Assembly: GCA_034226945.1 (NCBI GenBank)
Contig: CP120464.1
Location: 1 to 64,000, forward strand
DNA from: Picochlorum sp. SENEW3
Lineage: Eukaryota
DNA: 64,000 nucleotides
Direction: 5' to 3'
The notes beneath the pieces were generated by a model. That model had not been told where the DNA came from. It saw only the letters and a program-made list of their open reading frames with translations, and ran no database searches. The position numbers and the translations under genes were made by a program. Below are positions 28,266 to 36,699 of the stretch, one piece after another (the stretch's first letter is position 1; each line of letters opens with the position of its first letter).

Positions 28266-28813
28266 ATATGAATGTAAATAATTATTCAGGAAGGGGTGGA
28301 AATCATGCGCATTGGATGTCAGGCAGGGAATGCCAATTAATTACAGTTGTGTGGGTTACAGCACCATGCTGTAATAATAATCCTCCTTCATTATGGAGGA
28401 TGAGATGTCGACATCTCCCCGTCGATCGACGGAGGCTGCAATTGGATATTGTATCATCCCCGGTGGAGGAGCAAACTGCAATTACCCCCAAGTATCCAAG
28501 CTATGTATGATCCTCCCCCTGGCATTGCCAGCCTGGCAATGGTGGAGGGTGCCAAGAAAATCAGTGCAATGCTTTGGCTGTAGAAAATGGCATGTCTGCT
28601 GCTTGTGCACAGTTGTTCGTACATAGAATTTACACATATCTCTTGAGATTATTTTGATAATCGCTTGGCCAGAGCAAGCTTGCTTAGCCTTAAGGGTTTG
28701 GGCAAAGTCGCTTTAGCTTGCAAGTGCCGTCCTTCATGTGACAACATCGCGAGAATCTTGTTTCATTTCTCATTGTGAAACCATCGTATCAGCTAATAAT
28801 AGGAGCTCAGAAG

Positions 28814-30637
28814 ATGGCCCTCCCTTTACACGAGCTGTACAAAGACAGAGATGTCTGGGAGTTTTGGAGGGAGACTGGGGCGTTTTCGGACGCTATTCCC
28901 CGTATATGTGACCACATAGAGACTTTAATTCTACGCTATGGGGCATTGTACGGCTTGGTGGTGTGGCTGGGGACCGATGGGAAGCTGTATATGGTTTCCA
29001 GCAGGAACTTGGGGCTTGCCTTTAGGCTCATACCCTTGAGGCTTTTGAAGCAAGGTCTGAGGCCCTATGTCGCTGAGATCCTCGGATATCGACCCCATTG
29101 GGTTGATTGCATCAAAGTGAAGAATATATATGGACGAGGGAGCCAGGATAAGAGGGGAAATAGCAAAGGATATCACAATAAGAAGGCTGCTTTCTCCCTG
29201 CTGCAGAAGAGGCTAGGAAAGTCGCAGGACTTGCCTGTTCTGGCCGTAGTATATGCAAACGATAAATATCTAACGCTTTGTCACCCTCAAAAAGACACTG
29301 CGATGCAGAATTTAATGGACAAGGTGATACATTACTACAAATCTTTGTCAACGCAAATCAAGCCTAATTTCTCCTTGTTCCCTCCCTCTTCACAGATTGA
29401 CAGCACTCAGGGCCCTAAAAGAGCACCAAATACATCTTGTGGTACGAGTTCATCGAAAAAGAAGCCCAAAACAGGGTGTGAGCAGCCTTCAGGAGATGAG
29501 GCTATGGAGTCTGTGCCTCCCTCAGGCTCGCTGGAGTGGTATTGCCGCGCGATCGAGAGTCCTAATGGTACAGGAGTTACTCCTCTAATCAAAAAAGGAA
29601 GGATCTATGAATGGGCGTTCGCAGATGCGCGAATTCACGGGACTGGGGTAGATATGAAGGTCCATCACAACATGCTCGTTGTGGTGGAGTCTGGACATAA
29701 CATTACGGAGCACATGCGCTGCTCTTGTGCTGTATTTCGTAATCAGTTTGAGCCTAAGCGATGTGTGCATACGTTGTATGTACGTGCGAACTGGGAACAT
29801 CTGCGCAGCATGGCATTTGCAAAGGAAGATGATGTGGTGACCATCAAACAAAATAACTCCAGCACTGTTTGCTATTATGTGGATGGCTGCTTCGTCAGAA
29901 CTCAAGGAAATAAGGGTCTGCGCTGTGACTCAGATAAATCATATAGTTGTCGCCATATCGCTCGAGTGCGGGAGGCATTGCACCTGGTGGTGGAGCCTGG
30001 AGAGGAAGAGAGTGCATGCACACCTGATTCCTATGCTTTCTCCTCTGATGATGACGGGGCAGAAGTCCTATCTCTGAATCCATGGATATCAAAGATAGCA
30101 AAAACGATTCAACAAATTCATTATCCCTATTGCGACGAAGTGAAGCGGGGAGTCATGGAACGGCTGCTGTTTGGCTTTTCAAGAGACAAGGAAGGAACTC
30201 CACTTGGGCCCCTGCAGCCACGTATTCCCATTTCGATCAAGTGCAAGTGTGGCCTTTCTTACAATAGGAGGGGCTATAAAGAGACAGATCCTGTCACGGT
30301 CTACATGAGAGCGCCGCACTGTGCCCAATCACTGCCTTGCATGGTGTTGAAGTGCCAGAGAGGTGAACCAGAATGCACGTTGCATTATACAGGGCCACAA
30401 GATGGCTTGTGGCGGGCCTCCAAGACAGTGGCGATAGAGCTAGACTTGCTAGTACGATGTGCAAAGGATTCTGTTAGATTTGATGGGCAGTCGCTTACGG
30501 CACACCGAGACAGCATCAGTGACCTGTATGATATGGTCTCTAACAGCATCCCTACTGTGAGTTTCCTGGAGGCCAGTGCGTTCAGAGAGGCAGTGTACGG
30601 CATTGATCGCTTTCTACATCATGATTGTTATTTCTAG
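28814..30637 (+). mobile_element. KDZ (Kyakuja-Dileera-Zisupton) transposon-derived ORF: SWIM-like zinc fingers plus CxC4-like cluster, no catalytic transposase domain visible
   Basis: CSC-x11-CVH (29714-29770), second C-x7-CRH (29924-29956), C-terminal 'CKCG...VTVY...C..C.LHYTGPQDGLW...ELDLL...FREAVYG...YF'; intronless; no TIR or TSD found. Confidence 0.6.
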
Positions 30638-30859
30638 GAGGGTGTGAGGACACTATATGCTGCAATTTCATCAAAAGCCCATGTTGTCTTGTGCTGTAAA
30701 AGAAAGAACTTCGATCGAATGGTCACGTTCATGGGACCATCACCTTCTTCTTCTTCATCGTCTTGGAGATCCCTTGGCTTGTATGACAAACCTGGTACGA
30801 TTCACTTCGAAACATTCCTATTTCACCAGGAATGGCCGATCAATCCATAGAGTTTCATT

Positions 30860-32239
30860 ATGGAAGGCTTTTATATTGTTTTATTCGTAGTCCAAGCTGT
30901 TTTGGCTGGATATTTGGAATCTCATAATGTAGCACGAAAGGAGAGCAAGCATGGGGATGCTCCGAAGGATTTTGTTCAATTTAAGAATAACTATTTACTC
31001 GTATATTCGATGATGATGGCAGGGGACTGGCTGCAGGGCCCCTACGTCTACGCCTTGTACGAGCATTACGGATTTGGTCGAGGAGACATTGGTCGCTTGT
31101 TTATTGCTGGGTTTGGCTCATCGATGATTTTTGGGACCATTGTGGGAAGTCTGGCAGACAATCATGGGAGGAAGAGGGCTGCGTTGACATATGTGGTGTC
31201 GTATATGCTTGGATGCTTTACCAAGCATGTCAATTCGTTCTGGGTGCTCTTCATGGGGCGCGTGTTTTGTGGTGTGGCCACGTCTCTGTTGTACTCTGCT
31301 TTCGAGTCATGGCTGGTTGGAGAACATTTCAAAAGAAACTACGAAGCTGATTGGCTGGGTGGTATTTTCTCTCAGGCAGTGTTCTTGGGAAATGGGTTGA
31401 TGGCCATTGTGAGCGGGCTGTTTGCCCACTCCCTTGTGGAGACCTTTGCGCTCGGCCCGGTGGCGCCGTTCGATGCTGCTGCTCTCGTGCTTGGTATCGG
31501 AGGAATCATCATTTTCAGCACATGGTCGGAGAATTATGGGGATGCTTCCCATAGGAACAAGAATCAGCAGGAAATTTTCAAAAAGGCTGCTGGGGTGATC
31601 ATGGCAGACCCCAAGATTGCGCTGCTGGGCGTTATGCAGGCCTTGTTCGAGGGTTCCATGTATACGTTTGTGTTTTTATGGACACCAGCGCTGAGCCCGA
31701 ATGGGGAGCATATCCCCCATGGCATGGTGTTTGCGTGCTTCATGGTGTCCTGCATGGTTGGATCGGCATTCACAGGAAAGCTCCTTTCCAAATCCAGCAC
31801 CATCCCTCCAGAGAAGTATATGCAGCTTGTGTTTGGGCTCGCATCCGCCTGCCTTGCGGTACCGGTTCTCTTCGCTGGATCCGACTCGAGCAACATGATG
31901 AGCGAGGGCATCTCTTGGAATGGGAAAATCCAACTGATTGCCTTTTGCTGTTTTGAAGGCCTTGTTGGTATCTTCTGGCCCTCCATGATGACCCTTCGAT
32001 CTCAGTACGTTCCAGAAGACCTCCGCTCTACCATTATCAACTTTTTTAGGATCCCATTGAATCTGTTTGTCTGCGTGGTTCTGTACAATGTCAGCAGCCT
32101 ACCATTGTCAGCCATGTTTGGCATGTGCTCCTTCTTCCTGCTGGTATGCATGGTGTGCCAAAACCGCTTTGCAAACATTGTTGCGCAGCATAAGAATGAT
32201 GAACCACAGTCAAAAGATCTCTTGGCAAATGCCACCTGA
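30860..32239 (+). CDS. MOT2: Molybdate-anion transporter MOT2/MFSD5 (MFS)
   Basis: YSMMMAGDWLQGPYVYALY, LFIAGFGSS, SLLYSAFESW, FEGSMYTFVFLWTP, NFFRIPLN. Confidence 0.92.
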   Translation: MEGFYIVLFVVQAVLAGYLESHNVARKESKHGDAPKDFVQFKNNYLLVYSMMMAGDWLQGPYVYALYEHYGFGRGDIGRLFIAGFGSSMIFGTIVGSLADNHGRKRAALTYVVSYMLGCFTKHVNSFWVLFMGRVFCGVATSLLYSAFESWLVGEHFKRNYEADWLGGIFSQAVFLGNGLMAIVSGLFAHSLVETFALGPVAPFDAAALVLGIGGIIIFSTWSENYGDASHRNKNQQEIFKKAAGVIMADPKIALLGVMQALFEGSMYTFVFLWTPALSPNGEHIPHGMVFACFMVSCMVGSAFTGKLLSKSSTIPPEKYMQLVFGLASACLAVPVLFAGSDSSNMMSEGISWNGKIQLIAFCCFEGLVGIFWPSMMTLRSQYVPEDLRSTIINFFRIPLNLFVCVVLYNVSSLPLSAMFGMCSFFLLVCMVCQNRFANIVAQHKNDEPQSKDLLANAT

Positions 32240-32505: not shown

Positions 32506-32841
32506 ATGGTGTCAAGATCAATATCATCCCCCAATATGGGCGAGTTGATCCCCCAGCAAGGCGTATGCGGGGAAGATGACCATCTCATGGTCGAGTTGAT
32601 GGCTGCACAGAGGGATGCTGAGCGCATGGAAGAAGCCGTTGCACACAGAGATGTAGTCATATCGAAGATGTCTAGTCTGAGGAGGGCAGAGAAGGAAGGG
32701 TTTGAGGAAACCAAGCACAATCTCTTGGCTGAGGTGGCCCTCCTGCAAGGCACAATACACAAGTTGCGATTGAGATTACAAGAAGAGAAGAAAAAGAATC
32801 GAGAGTTACAAAGAAAATGCTCGAAACGATACCCGATGTGA
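32506..32841 (+). CDS. Hypothetical coiled-coil protein (may have an upstream exon)
   Basis: 111-aa ORF with E/K/R/L heptad-like composition; possible acceptor TCATAG just upstream. Confidence 0.45.
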   Translation: MVSRSISSPNMGELIPQQGVCGEDDHLMVELMAAQRDAERMEEAVAHRDVVISKMSSLRRAEKEGFEETKHNLLAEVALLQGTIHKLRLRLQEEKKKNRELQRKCSKRYPM

Positions 32842-32882: not shown

Positions 32883-33116
32883 TTACCCCTGCTTTTTTTC
32901 CTCTGCTTTTTTTTCCTGAGCCACAGCGGCATCATGTAAAGGTTTATCAAAGATGTACACTCCACTGACGACTCCTACCCTGCAGTATATTCAACAACAA
33001 TGACACATTACTACTGCACATGCATGAAATCCAATGCAAAGAAAGAAATGCACCTACACAGCTGCCAGTAGGTAGTGGGCAGGTCCAGTTCTTCGGAAAG
33101 ACCTCGCCAGTGACAT
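32883..33116 (-). CDS. 51-aa single-TM microprotein, PIGBOS1-like; exons 33116-33058 and 32979-32883
   Basis: GTAGGT...CTGCAG intron 33057-32980; spliced product MSLARSFRRTGPAHYLLAAVVGVVSGVYIFDKPLHDAAVAQEKKAEEKKQG. Confidence 0.78.
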
Positions 33117-33404
33117 GGATCCAGCCTCTTCTATTCGAATTCCTTCACCGAAAAGTCTGCCATGATTATTACTTGAGAATTTGATGTGGACGCAACTGTG
33201 ATGCTTCTTCTATTTCTGAGAGAAGGAAAAAAATTTCGAATTTGGGACATTTCAAATGTCTTGTCACGATTTGAGTTTGCGTTGAGGACGTGATCAAGAA
33301 TATTTTCATGTTTTTTTCTCCTTTCCAAAGATTAGTATTCATTTCATAGATTCAGTTGGTATGAGCAGGGCGGAATTTGAAAAGGGAATGGATGTAACAC
33401 TCCC

Positions 33405-35591
33405 ATGAAGCTTTTGAAGAAGAAAAAGAGCAAGGGCCGTCAGGAGCTCTTCTATTTTGATATAGATGAATTGTCTCCATGGCCTCCGTTGCATGGTCCG
33501 TTGATATTGCAGTGGCAGAGGGGGTCGAAGAGACGGGGCCAGAGTGGGGTGGTCCAGCCAGAGGGCGATGGGGATTCTGAGCCCACGTCATACAAATTTG
33601 GGACTCGGTTTGAGATCCCTGCGACCTTGTATGACAATGGGAAGAAGAGGAAGGATCTGAGTCTGTTTGTGTGCCAGTTGAATGAGAAGGGAAAGGTGGG
33701 GAATATGGTTGGTGCTGTCACCATTGATCTCGTTGGATTGGATTCTCTGACGAGTCAGCCTGCTCGACAAGAGTATATTGTCGAGTGTAGTGAGTCTATT
33801 GCGGAATTGGCTCAAGGTCGGCCTAAATTGAGGATTGGTTTGTCAAAGAGTGGGGGTGTGGAGGGTGATGCCGCAGTGGTTCATGATGAGGGGCAGGGGG
33901 TGAGCAATGATATTCCTATTCCTTCGACGCTGTCGACAGAGGTGAATTCCTCTCAGGCCTCAGGTGGGAATGTTGCGAGTTTGAGAACGATCACGAGTCC
34001 GAGGAGCAAGGTGGTTGTGCCAGAGATGGTGGAAGAGGAGTATGATGAGGACGGGTTTCTGGTGGACGGTAGCAAAGAGAAGAGCTTGTCTTTCATGCCT
34101 GAAGATCGTGAAGACCTCTTGTATTCATCAGGGACAGAGACACGAAAGAATTTGGAGGGTGATTTGGAAAAGGCTATGGATGAGGATACAGAGGATGATC
34201 GGTCTCCGTTCAGGGCGTCAAGGAGGAAACCGATACATGAGAGGCGATTTTCGAGGGATGTGAATTCTTTTGGATCGCTTCAACAGTTTAAAGGTGAGGA
34301 GGATGCCATGACAGGTTTGCCCTCCATGGTGGCAAGCTGCAACTCGACCATGCTGCATGCAAGGGAAAAGGATGAGTCAGGCTATCGCCAGAAGAGAGAT
34401 ATGCAAATTGCTGCTGCTGTAGAAATGTCAGTTTGGGCTGCTGGTGCGAGTTGGGGATCCGATCGGCCCGGAGAAATGCCGAGGGGCGACAGGATGCAGG
34501 CCCCGGCTCGAAGGCTTGCGCGCACAATCATCAGGCTTGGGGAAGAGGATGGTCCCAAATTTATGGATCAAGCCCTGCATATGATTAAAAAGTCCTGTGT
34601 AGCATCTCTTGGGGATGTTCATCGAGTGATGATGATGTGGTCATGCATGGTCACGCTGCGATGGTCATTTTGGACATTGGTGGACAAGAGCCGACCTGCT
34701 GAGACACTCATGGCTGGCTTCGAGTGGTTGCAAGAGATAATTTGCCCCCGAATAGAAGCCGTGGAATCGTGGCTTTTTGATACATTGTTATCATACCTGT
34801 GGACAGGAAAAATGATGAGAGATTTGCAGGAATGCAGAGACGCTGACAGCCTTGACCAACTTGTGACTGATTACATGGGCGTGCTACGCACGGCACTGGG
34901 CGTGCTTGAAGATAGAAGTCGACCTGCTCCGTGTTCGAAAACTTTGAAAATGGTATTGAAGAAACAGGTGTTACACGGTATTCGTGTGAAGCTGGATGCG
35001 TTCCTGCTGAGTGAGTTGCTGGAGCAGCGTGTGTCCTGCTTTCGTCCTGTCACCTCACCCTTGGGTCTCGAGCTCAAGATATTCATCGATAAAATATCGA
35101 CATGGTTTGAGAGCGATGCAACCAGTACGAGAGAATTTGGTCAAGAAGAATGGTACAATGCACAGCAGGACACCAAGATGGATAGTGCATTGCCACGCAT
35201 GGCAAGCGCAGCCAACGTGATTGTTGCTCAGAAATCCTCCCTCCTAGATGCTGAGGCTCGTGATCGGATTGCGCCCCACATATCCCTGGCGTCTGCATGC
35301 AAGATTTTAAAAAACTATGAATCCACAAAAGAGGATGCAGAGAATGTGGAGGAGATTGTTGCAGCTCTGAAATCTCAAGCAAGGAGCAAGATTGATCTGA
35401 AAGAATCCTCTGAAGCCATGGATTCGGTACAGTATGTTGTCCCGCCTGAAGACTGGCTATCGCAACAGGGCATTATCCAGCCTCTATCTCTGGAGATGAA
35501 TGCAGACTCTGACGAAGAATTGGAATCGTTTGAATCGGTCAGTTCTGGGGAGAGATTTACATATTTACGTGAATTATGGTCAGTTAATTGA
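33405..35591 (+). CDS. NT-type C2 domain protein (EEIG1/EHBP1 N-terminal) with helical, possibly DIL-like C-terminus
   Basis: LSPWP...LILQWQRG...FEIPATLY...VGAVTIDL; later APARRLAR and LDAFLLSELL...GLELKIFI. Confidence 0.7.
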   Translation: MKLLKKKKSKGRQELFYFDIDELSPWPPLHGPLILQWQRGSKRRGQSGVVQPEGDGDSEPTSYKFGTRFEIPATLYDNGKKRKDLSLFVCQLNEKGKVGNMVGAVTIDLVGLDSLTSQPARQEYIVECSESIAELAQGRPKLRIGLSKSGGVEGDAAVVHDEGQGVSNDIPIPSTLSTEVNSSQASGGNVASLRTITSPRSKVVVPEMVEEEYDEDGFLVDGSKEKSLSFMPEDREDLLYSSGTETRKNLEGDLEKAMDEDTEDDRSPFRASRRKPIHERRFSRDVNSFGSLQQFKGEEDAMTGLPSMVASCNSTMLHAREKDESGYRQKRDMQIAAAVEMSVWAAGASWGSDRPGEMPRGDRMQAPARRLARTIIRLGEEDGPKFMDQALHMIKKSCVASLGDVHRVMMMWSCMVTLRWSFWTLVDKSRPAETLMAGFEWLQEIICPRIEAVESWLFDTLLSYLWTGKMMRDLQECRDADSLDQLVTDYMGVLRTALGVLEDRSRPAPCSKTLKMVLKKQVLHGIRVKLDAFLLSELLEQRVSCFRPVTSPLGLELKIFIDKISTWFESDATSTREFGQEEWYNAQQDTKMDSALPRMASAANVIVAQKSSLLDAEARDRIAPHISLASACKILKNYESTKEDAENVEEIVAALKSQARSKIDLKESSEAMDSVQYVVPPEDWLSQQGIIQPLSLEMNADSDEELESFESVSSGERFTYLRELWSVN

Positions 35592-35611: not shown

Positions 35612-36499
35612 TCAATTGGACTGCCCTGGGCTCTCGAACGCCCCCCACTCTTCTTCTGTAGAGTAGCTCTTCCCTGCTGTTGGTGACCCGCCTACCTTTG
35701 GAGAATTGCCCTGAGAGCTGGGTGCCAATGCTGCCTCCATACCTCCCTGAGGATCAAACATTAAACTAAACGTCTTTGCCAACTTTCCATGTTTATTCCT
35801 ACTCACAAATCCTCCTCCAGAATGAGATGCTGCGTGATTAGCATTCAATTTCAACTGCATCGTCTGCCCCGATTTCAGGGCCAAATCATCACTATGCTTT
35901 ATTGCACTGCCATGGTGGCCACCTGTCCCCTCACCCATTGCAGGCTCATGGGCCTGCGCCTGCATTTCTTCAGCTCTATGCTTCCTCTCCAAATACTGCT
36001 GATAATCAACCAAAGAGGTATAGAAATCCGCCGCAACGTCTCGCTCGGCGAATCCAAGACCAATAAAAGCATGCTTTCCGCTCTCTGGATCCACTACCCG
36101 AATCACAAAATACCTACTGCTATCAATCACCCGTTCCACACAGGTATGCAACGGCACAGATACCGGACACTCCGCCCACATATCCCCACTGGCAGGATCC
36201 TGCAACTGAATATATGCCAAATCTTCCGATCCTACCATCTTTTTCACAAACTTCACACTGACTTCAGCAAGCCAAGTGCCCACGTTCCAAGTCTCCGCCC
36301 GGTGACCACTCTGCGCGATAGGTATGATGTAAATAAGCATATATCTGATCACGGGACCAACACAATGAGGCCAACGCGGTACATAATACTCAGCAAGGCG
36401 ATCAGACGAATTTGGAAAACATACCGTGGTAGCAGGTGGAACTCTGTATACATAGCCCTGATCGGATGAGAAAAGATTGATTTCAATGGTATCCGACAT
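35612..36499 (-). CDS. NECAP: Adaptin ear-binding coat-associated protein (NECAP); intron 36424-36311
   Basis: YVYRVPP, GHRAETW, VERVIDSSRYFVIRV, HAFIGLGFAER, LALKSGQT, C-terminal WGAF. Confidence 0.9.
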   Translation of the reverse strand: MSDTIEINLFSSDQGYVYRVPPATTVCFPNSSDRLAEYYVPRWPHCVGPVIRYMLIYIIPIAQSGHRAETWNVGTWLAEVSVKFVKKMVGSEDLAYIQLQDPASGDMWAECPVSVPLHTCVERVIDSSRYFVIRVVDPESGKHAFIGLGFAERDVAADFYTSLVDYQQYLERKHRAEEMQAQAHEPAMGEGTGGHHGSAIKHSDDLALKSGQTMQLKLNANHAASHSGGGFVSRNKHGKLAKTFSLMFDPQGGMEAALAPSSQGNSPKVGGSPTAGKSYSTEEEWGAFESPGQSN

Positions 36500-36699
36500 T
36501 TTTACAAGATTATATAACTGAAATCGATGTGTTCCAGGGCAATTTGACGTGTCGGGAAATCCTGGACTTGCAAGCTTGCAATTGCGCCCTGCAGGGCCAG
36601 CTGGCCCGGGGATCTTTTCCATGCATTCATGCCACCCTGCGAGACTGAGAGATTACTAAAGAATAGTATTCCTTGCAATAATAGTAACGCGAGTGCAGT

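Follow-up and report, generated by a model that had tools for sequence, protein, structure and literature searches.

Within the 64,000-nt window analysed here (positions 1 to 64,000 of contig CP120464.1, Picochlorum sp. SENEW3), we identified a short minus-strand gene whose coding sequence is divided by a single intron and which encodes a membrane microprotein. The features at and around this locus are the following:

33116-33058, minus strand: coding exon 1, 59 nt from Met1, encoding the Arg-rich N-terminus (FRRTGP motif) and the first half of the predicted membrane helix; covered by spliced contigs
33057-32980, minus strand: intron, 78 nt, GT-AG, beginning GTAGGT and ending CTGCAG, with two in-frame stops; skipped in three of four sequencing runs
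32979-32883, minus strand: coding exon 2, 97 nt including the TAA stop, encoding the GxxSGxYIFxxPL core and the charged tail
33052..33053, minus strand: minor alternative donor, 4 nt into the intron, giving a 74-nt skip; one contig in run X3, depth 5.4
33117..33166, minus strand: probable 5' leader; RNA contigs end at 33166, 33147 and 33137, short of an upstream Met at 33250, a weak hint, as contigs do not show true starts
33131..33163, minus strand: upstream ORF of 10 codons, out of frame, ending 14 nt before the main ATG and with a stronger start context than the latter
33405..35591, plus strand: divergent NT-C2 and DIL gene (NT-C2 E 7e-5, DIL E 2.3e-4, both under cut-off); the first X3 RNA contig starts at 33304
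32506..32841, plus strand: convergent coiled-coil-like ORF, 111 residues, no significant Pfam match, ending 41 nt from the microprotein stop
32810-32806 and 32780-32776, minus strand: two TGTAA elements, 72 and 102 nt past the microprotein stop, antisense inside the neighbouring plus-strand ORF
32935-32939, plus strand: TGTAA of the coiled-coil-like ORF, inside microprotein exon 2
30851-32239, plus strand: MFS_5 transporter (E 6e-136), an ordinary neighbour
35612-36652, minus strand: DUF1681/NECAP-type protein (E 4e-36), an ordinary neighbour

Translation of both exons yields a joined minus-strand frame of 51 residues, identical to the product proposed in the initial annotation, and GC content is 0.37 in the 78-nt intron versus 0.49 in the exons. 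We looked for the splice joint in four of 19 sequencing runs, one of them (X1) marked as probably DNA and the other three only guessed to be RNA. The joint 32978->33057 (78 nt skipped, CT..AC) was present in three of the four runs (X3, X7 and X9), originating from three studies, and we take these runs as spliced RNA because the precise GT-AG skip itself marks RNA splicing. Run X1 did not contain the joint, and its contig continues into the intron. The two-exon structure, for which junction reads at 33058/32979 had been put forward as the check, is hence confirmed by a spliced minus-strand transcript. In X3, contig depth, a rough measure only, was 139.9 with the intron spliced out, against 5.6 with the intron retained and 5.4 with the minor 74-nt skip; as read from the sequence, the latter keeps an in-frame TAG and would give a 20-residue truncated product. 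Among 112 translated products, comprising alternative GT-AG joins and the two single exons, the claimed join ranked first against a profile made only from the 22 homologues described below (59.1 bits; next 39.7). Both DNA and protein searches found the region to be single-copy in this genome (13.85 Mb, 14 contigs). Together, these results demonstrate that the microprotein gene is a real, single-copy nuclear gene that is transcribed and spliced.

A phmmer search with exon 2 against 1.84 billion representatives returned one match, KAI8111079.1, a 96-aa hypothetical protein (M9434_004652) of the sister strain Picochlorum sp. BPE23, with PF23670 precomputed in its record and no name or function given. 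This protein is the product of the same gene with the same splice junction, identical to the window product at 50 of 51 residues (A13V), and differs from it in beginning at an upstream Met (33250 here), which adds 45 residues. The stretch matching this extension is frameshifted and interrupted by a TAG in the window, and on these grounds we excluded a 96-aa product in this strain. Because the upstream stretch is out of frame and carries this stop and, as a weak hint, because RNA contigs stop short of 33250, the 51-residue form is the likely product, and we infer translation from the Met at 33116. In 15 of the 22 homologues, a Met (sought only 14-30 residues upstream) places the motif Gly at position 17-23. 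In the window product this Gly is at position 22, whereas the BPE23 model, whose GenBank start is probably wrong, has it at 67. The main ATG has a weak context (T at -3). For the upstream 10-codon ORF to belong to the transcript, the leader must extend to 33163 (an X3 contig reaches 33166); if inside the leader, this ORF could dampen translation. The expectation that standard pipelines would probably miss the gene stood in part: searched in six frames without splicing, the genome yields no match to the Pfam model, which explains why the ORF track lacks the gene, whereas the splice-aware annotation of BPE23 did call it as KAI8111079.1.

The 51-residue product presents a net charge of +3 over residues 1-9, a best 19-residue hydrophobic window at residues 12-30 (Kyte-Doolittle mean 1.70), a G22-x3-G26 motif in the predicted membrane helix and a tail (residues 31-51) with five Lys and five Asp/Glu and net charge 0, in agreement with the basic N-terminus, single transmembrane segment with GxxxG and charged tail first described. 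Single-sequence AlphaFold2 modelling of KAI8111079.1 predicted a helix over residues 57-93, with a pLDDT of 66-76 for this block and a whole-model mean of 61.8. Exon 2 alone matches the PIGBOS1-like family PF23670 with E 2.7e-5 and 24.6 bits, under the 27-bit cut-off, and exon 1 alone gives no match; because the helix is interrupted by the intron, the cut-off is not reached by either exon on its own. KAI8111079.1 does pass it (34.6 versus 27 bits, E 2.2e-8, profile positions 3-42 of 54), a score that belongs to the sister-strain protein, with one of 51 residues different, and not to the window's own spliced product. The top three Atlas clusters are likewise PF23670 (scores 0.83-0.90; two look-ups of one source), and their commonest taxa are Streptophyta, Ascomycota, Basidiomycota and Chordata; the next-nearest families, COX6C, MITRAC7/Phoenixin and DUF4516 (0.76-0.83), are leads only. 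On this evidence, which agrees with the PIGBOS1 likeness originally proposed, the gene almost certainly codes for a single-pass membrane protein of 51 residues belonging to the PF23670 family, and this family, as judged from its Atlas clusters in plants, fungi and chordates, is not animal-specific. Sequence searches of the PDB gave no significant match to any chain of a solved structure (best profile-search E 0.48). PARP16 matches (E 0.44-0.49) were set aside, as they depend on the spurious N-terminal extension of KAI8111079.1. As no solved-structure chain matched, the product does not correspond to a recognised stable subunit in the respiratory complexes with solved structures.

Word-indexed searches with residues 46-96 of KAI8111079.1 recovered only this protein itself among four candidates at 52-168 aa, no candidate at 30-51 aa and none of 236 candidates at 169-2000 aa, and a DNA search for related loci confirmed none of 599 stretches. 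These direct searches were too insensitive for so short a protein, as a motif scan later found homologues: scanning metagenome contigs with a degenerate motif for the helix core, built from exon 2, yielded 49 loci, 39 of which were family-like and gave 22 distinct proteins. All 22 match PF23670 (25.2-57.3 bits; 19 of 22 above the cut-off). The loci dropped as non-family (L008, L010, L013, L018, L025, L026, L032, L042, L045 and L052) were separated by our own judgement, and six distinct motif-only ORFs reached at most 15.9 bits for PF23670, with three of the six listed for this family. Three cluster members (P0005, P0010 and P0025) were ignored as unrelated sequences by inspection.

Since exon 2 supplied the motif, the match of the homologues over the core is circular, whereas their N-terminal match is not. 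When the 2292 window ORFs were scored with a profile restricted to homologue residues N-terminal to the motif, exon 1 came out on top (11.9 bits, E 0.024; next 6.1), the sequence FRRTGP is exactly common to exon 1 and several homologues, and an Arg occurs at offset -16 in 15 of 22. Conversely, the stretch that follows the conserved Pro-Leu is freely variable across the 22 homologues, at a position that, mapped through the Pfam profile, corresponds approximately to the CLCC1-binding segment 30-36 of human PIGBOS. All 16 close homologue pairs show pN < pS, a figure biased by the fixing of about 10 of 31 codons by the motif and obtained from pairs that are not independent. GC content and gene spacing suggest that many homologues come from picoeukaryotic green algae and others from diatom-like organisms; none of the homologues recovered was labelled Chlorella or Chlamydomonas, and BPE23 is the only named relative in which conservation is demonstrated. 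Most metagenome homologues carry the core in one open frame, whereas in the window gene the helix is split by the intron. Ten loci with 33-52% GC (L014, L016, L020, L024, L029, L030, L038, L044, L048 and L050) present no Met close upstream, and in several of them an AG acceptor-like site lies just before the FRR motif. This suggests an intron after a tiny first exon, placed differently from the window intron.

The divergent layout with the NT-C2 gene was as first reported, with 288 nt between the microprotein ATG and the NT-C2/DIL ATG at 33405 on the plus strand, and X3 RNA contigs leave 33167-33303 uncovered. A shared promoter, which had been read into this layout, is possible, but the 288-nt gap is typical: 4 of the 12 divergent long-ORF pairs in the window lie closer, by a rough count from ORFs with introns disregarded, and the 77 flanking ORFs at 19 homologous loci (600-nt flanks only) contained no NT-C2 domain. 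A bacterial promoter scan, which does not apply to a eukaryote, found nothing. On the convergent side, seven of ten strain substitutions in the coiled-coil-like ORF are synonymous, all at third positions, and the ORF is probably coding for this reason. We take TGTAA to be the chlorophyte polyadenylation signal, and the 3' ends of this ORF and of the microprotein gene probably overlap, each extending into the coding sequence of the other. Exon 2 has no listed substitutions in four runs versus 25 variable sites in the 683 nt downstream (naive P 0.03), a comparison limited as a sign of constraint by the 2-4 unlisted differences carried by contig pieces over exon 1 and by A13V in BPE23. Elsewhere on the plus strand, a 631-codon open frame (28742-30637) without a Pfam match contains Cys/His-rich SWIM-like motifs by eye; from this resemblance, we presume that it may be transposon-derived.

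Human PIGBOS1 (54 aa) and the 51-aa algal protein are alike in size, in their single membrane helix, short N-terminus and charged tail, and in Pfam family, a likeness judged from family and layout. They differ in gene organization: the human coding sequence lies in one exon (PMC6814811), whereas the algal one is split by an intron, and the human locus adjoins PIGB, whereas the algal gene is flanked by the NT-C2/DIL gene and the coiled-coil-like ORF, followed by MFS_5 and DUF1681, and is not opposite PIGB. The position opposite PIGB characterises the human locus and does not define the family. Human PIGBOS is a single-pass protein of the mitochondrial outer membrane with a cytosolic C-terminus that self-associates and binds CLCC1 through residues 30-36, and without this binding it does not exert its influence on the unfolded protein response (PMC6814811); the 2026 PIGBOS-CLCC1 preprint adds calcium signalling. 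PIGBOS has been listed as a verified mitochondrial peptide (PMC7066179), and human PIGBOS1 co-purified HIGD2A, subunits of complexes III and IV, and carriers (Morgenstern et al. 2021, PMC8664129).

As regards its distribution, the 2019 paper presents PIGBOS as lacking paralogs or homologs (Chu et al., PMC6814811), a term search of the available text of the 2026 PIGBOS-CLCC1 preprint found no conservation, plant or homologue terms, and 10.64898/2026.08.29.748005 cites the human PIGBOS protein. No plant, algal or fungal PIGBOS appeared in titles among the listed literature matches for PIGBOS, subscription journals and bioRxiv supplements lying outside the search; pairing PIGBOS with Chlamydomonas found nothing, and pairing it with Arabidopsis gave mostly reviews among the matches listed. 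Yeast Ecm19 is, we presume, a possible member of the PIGBOS1 family. PIGBOS goes unmentioned in the available text of the Ecm19 paper, according to which Ecm19 has no mammalian orthologue (PMC12642899).

We detected no match to CLCC1 (PF05934) or Brl1/Brr6 (PF10104) in this genome, in searches run with no positive control on families that diverge strongly. Two HIG_1_N matches above cut-off, corresponding to HIG1/Rcf genes, were found at C5:931201-931344 and C6:909301-909366. Plants are stated to have no clearly identifiable Brl1/Brr6/CLCC1 homologues, and diverged, undetectable equivalents are expected (10.1101/2025.07.21.665908).

The reading that we favour, to which we assign about an even chance, is an accessory role in mitochondria that does not depend on CLCC1 and is tied to the assembly of complexes III/IV. 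By analogy with the human member, the Arg-rich N-terminus and moderately hydrophobic helix would quite probably direct the protein to a mitochondrial membrane. The 51-residue protein has no room for a catalytic site and would most likely act as an accessory helix, with its GxxSGxYIFxxPL face packing against itself and against a membrane partner. In the alga this partner would probably not be CLCC1, and the protein would most likely contribute to the assembly or stability of respiratory complexes III/IV alongside HIG1/Rcf-type factors. We prefer this assembly role to the alternatives because of the co-purification of HIGD2A and complexes III-IV with human PIGBOS1, the lack of a CLCC1/Brl1 match, the two HIG_1_N genes, the variable segment after the Pro-Leu and the common N-terminal Arg. 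Several points weigh against it, however. The sole direct localisation of a family member is to the outer membrane with a cytosolic C-terminus, which misfits an inner-membrane job (PMC6814811), the HIGD2A link is one tagged pull-down in human cells (PMC8664129), any aerobic eukaryote would be expected to have HIG1 genes, which makes their presence of little weight, and no solved-structure chain matched. An outer-membrane location for the algal protein would itself be borrowed from human PIGBOS.

That location would suit a protein working as human PIGBOS does: signal-anchored in the outer membrane, it would modulate ER stress or calcium signalling through contact between its cytosolic tail and a protein of the ER membrane, either a diverged CLCC1/Brl1-like one or a different partner. 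We regard this as possible but clearly less probable than an assembly role. It draws on the outer-membrane position and CLCC1-dependent effect of human PIGBOS, the calcium signalling of the 2026 preprint and the same size and layout of the two proteins, and the genome's lack of a CLCC1 or Brl1/Brr6 match is a weak negative, and undetectably diverged equivalents are expected (10.1101/2025.07.21.665908). Nevertheless, that lack of a match counts against it, the juxtamembrane segment is not conserved among the 22 homologues, and the positive charge lies on the N-terminal side while the tail is net neutral. The product could also be a true family member with another location or job, be it the ER, the chloroplast envelope, the peroxisome or a non-respiratory mitochondrial role such as import or membrane shaping, since short single-helix proteins hold little targeting information and the PF23670 match spans only about 40 residues. 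We consider this unlikely, because three papers place the one member characterised so far in mitochondria (PMC6814811, PMC8664129, PMC7066179) and the Arg-rich N-terminus is kept, with the Arg at offset -16 in most homologues. It is highly improbable that the transcript is spliced and the ORF is an untranslated chance product: the weak start context, the upstream out-of-frame ATG and the failure of direct sequence searches to reach beyond the sister strain would agree with such a view, whereas the sister-strain protein passes the Pfam cut-off, exon 1 matches homologue N-termini that lay outside the search motif, and the dominant splice form is the best family fit.

The gene adds an ordinary and as yet uncharacterised member to a known pan-eukaryotic family, one that had already been deposited from a sister strain, and does not represent a new kind of system. 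The range of PF23670 in plants and fungi is known in Pfam and Atlas and has been little discussed in print, the literature covered by our search dealing with PIGBOS almost exclusively in animals; the present analysis contributes RNA data that prove how the gene is built in a green alga, together with a corrected start for the GenBank model and 22 further microbial-eukaryote-type sequences. The main value of the gene is as a handle on family function where CLCC1 is not detectable. We tentatively suggest, as a proposal that may well prove wrong, that PIGBOS1-like proteins are ancient and pan-eukaryotic, that their original job was the CLCC1-independent assembly or tuning of complexes III/IV via the invariant GxxSGxYIFxxPL helix, and that the human ER-stress role is a later animal addition. 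The algal gene would allow this ancestral respiratory role to be tested in a cell apparently without CLCC1.

Examination of the homologous loci also revealed recurrent tandem pairs. In 23 of 29 Met-start loci (GC 0.58-0.65), the microprotein stop is followed on the same strand, at a distance of 11-66 nt, by the start of a C-5 DNA methylase ORF; these loci are L004, L005, L006, L009, L011, L012, L015, L017, L019, L021, L022 and L027, and further L028, L033, L034, L036, L039, L040, L041, L043, L046, L049 and L051. PF00145 was confirmed for six representative methylase ORFs, which appear to be DNMT2-like, and no TGTAA occurs in the 150 nt after the microprotein stop at the paired loci. The arrangement would fit a conserved bicistronic locus, of a kind described for green algae (PMC7896298; PMC11291117); seven supplements of PMC7896298 contain no DNMT or PIGBOS term. 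The methylase pairing is absent from this genome, in which the only PF00145 matches lie on another contig. At a further locus with 28% GC (L031:553-762), only 8 nt separate the microprotein ORF from a GDSL lipase/esterase ORF downstream of it on the same strand, forming a very tight tandem pair.
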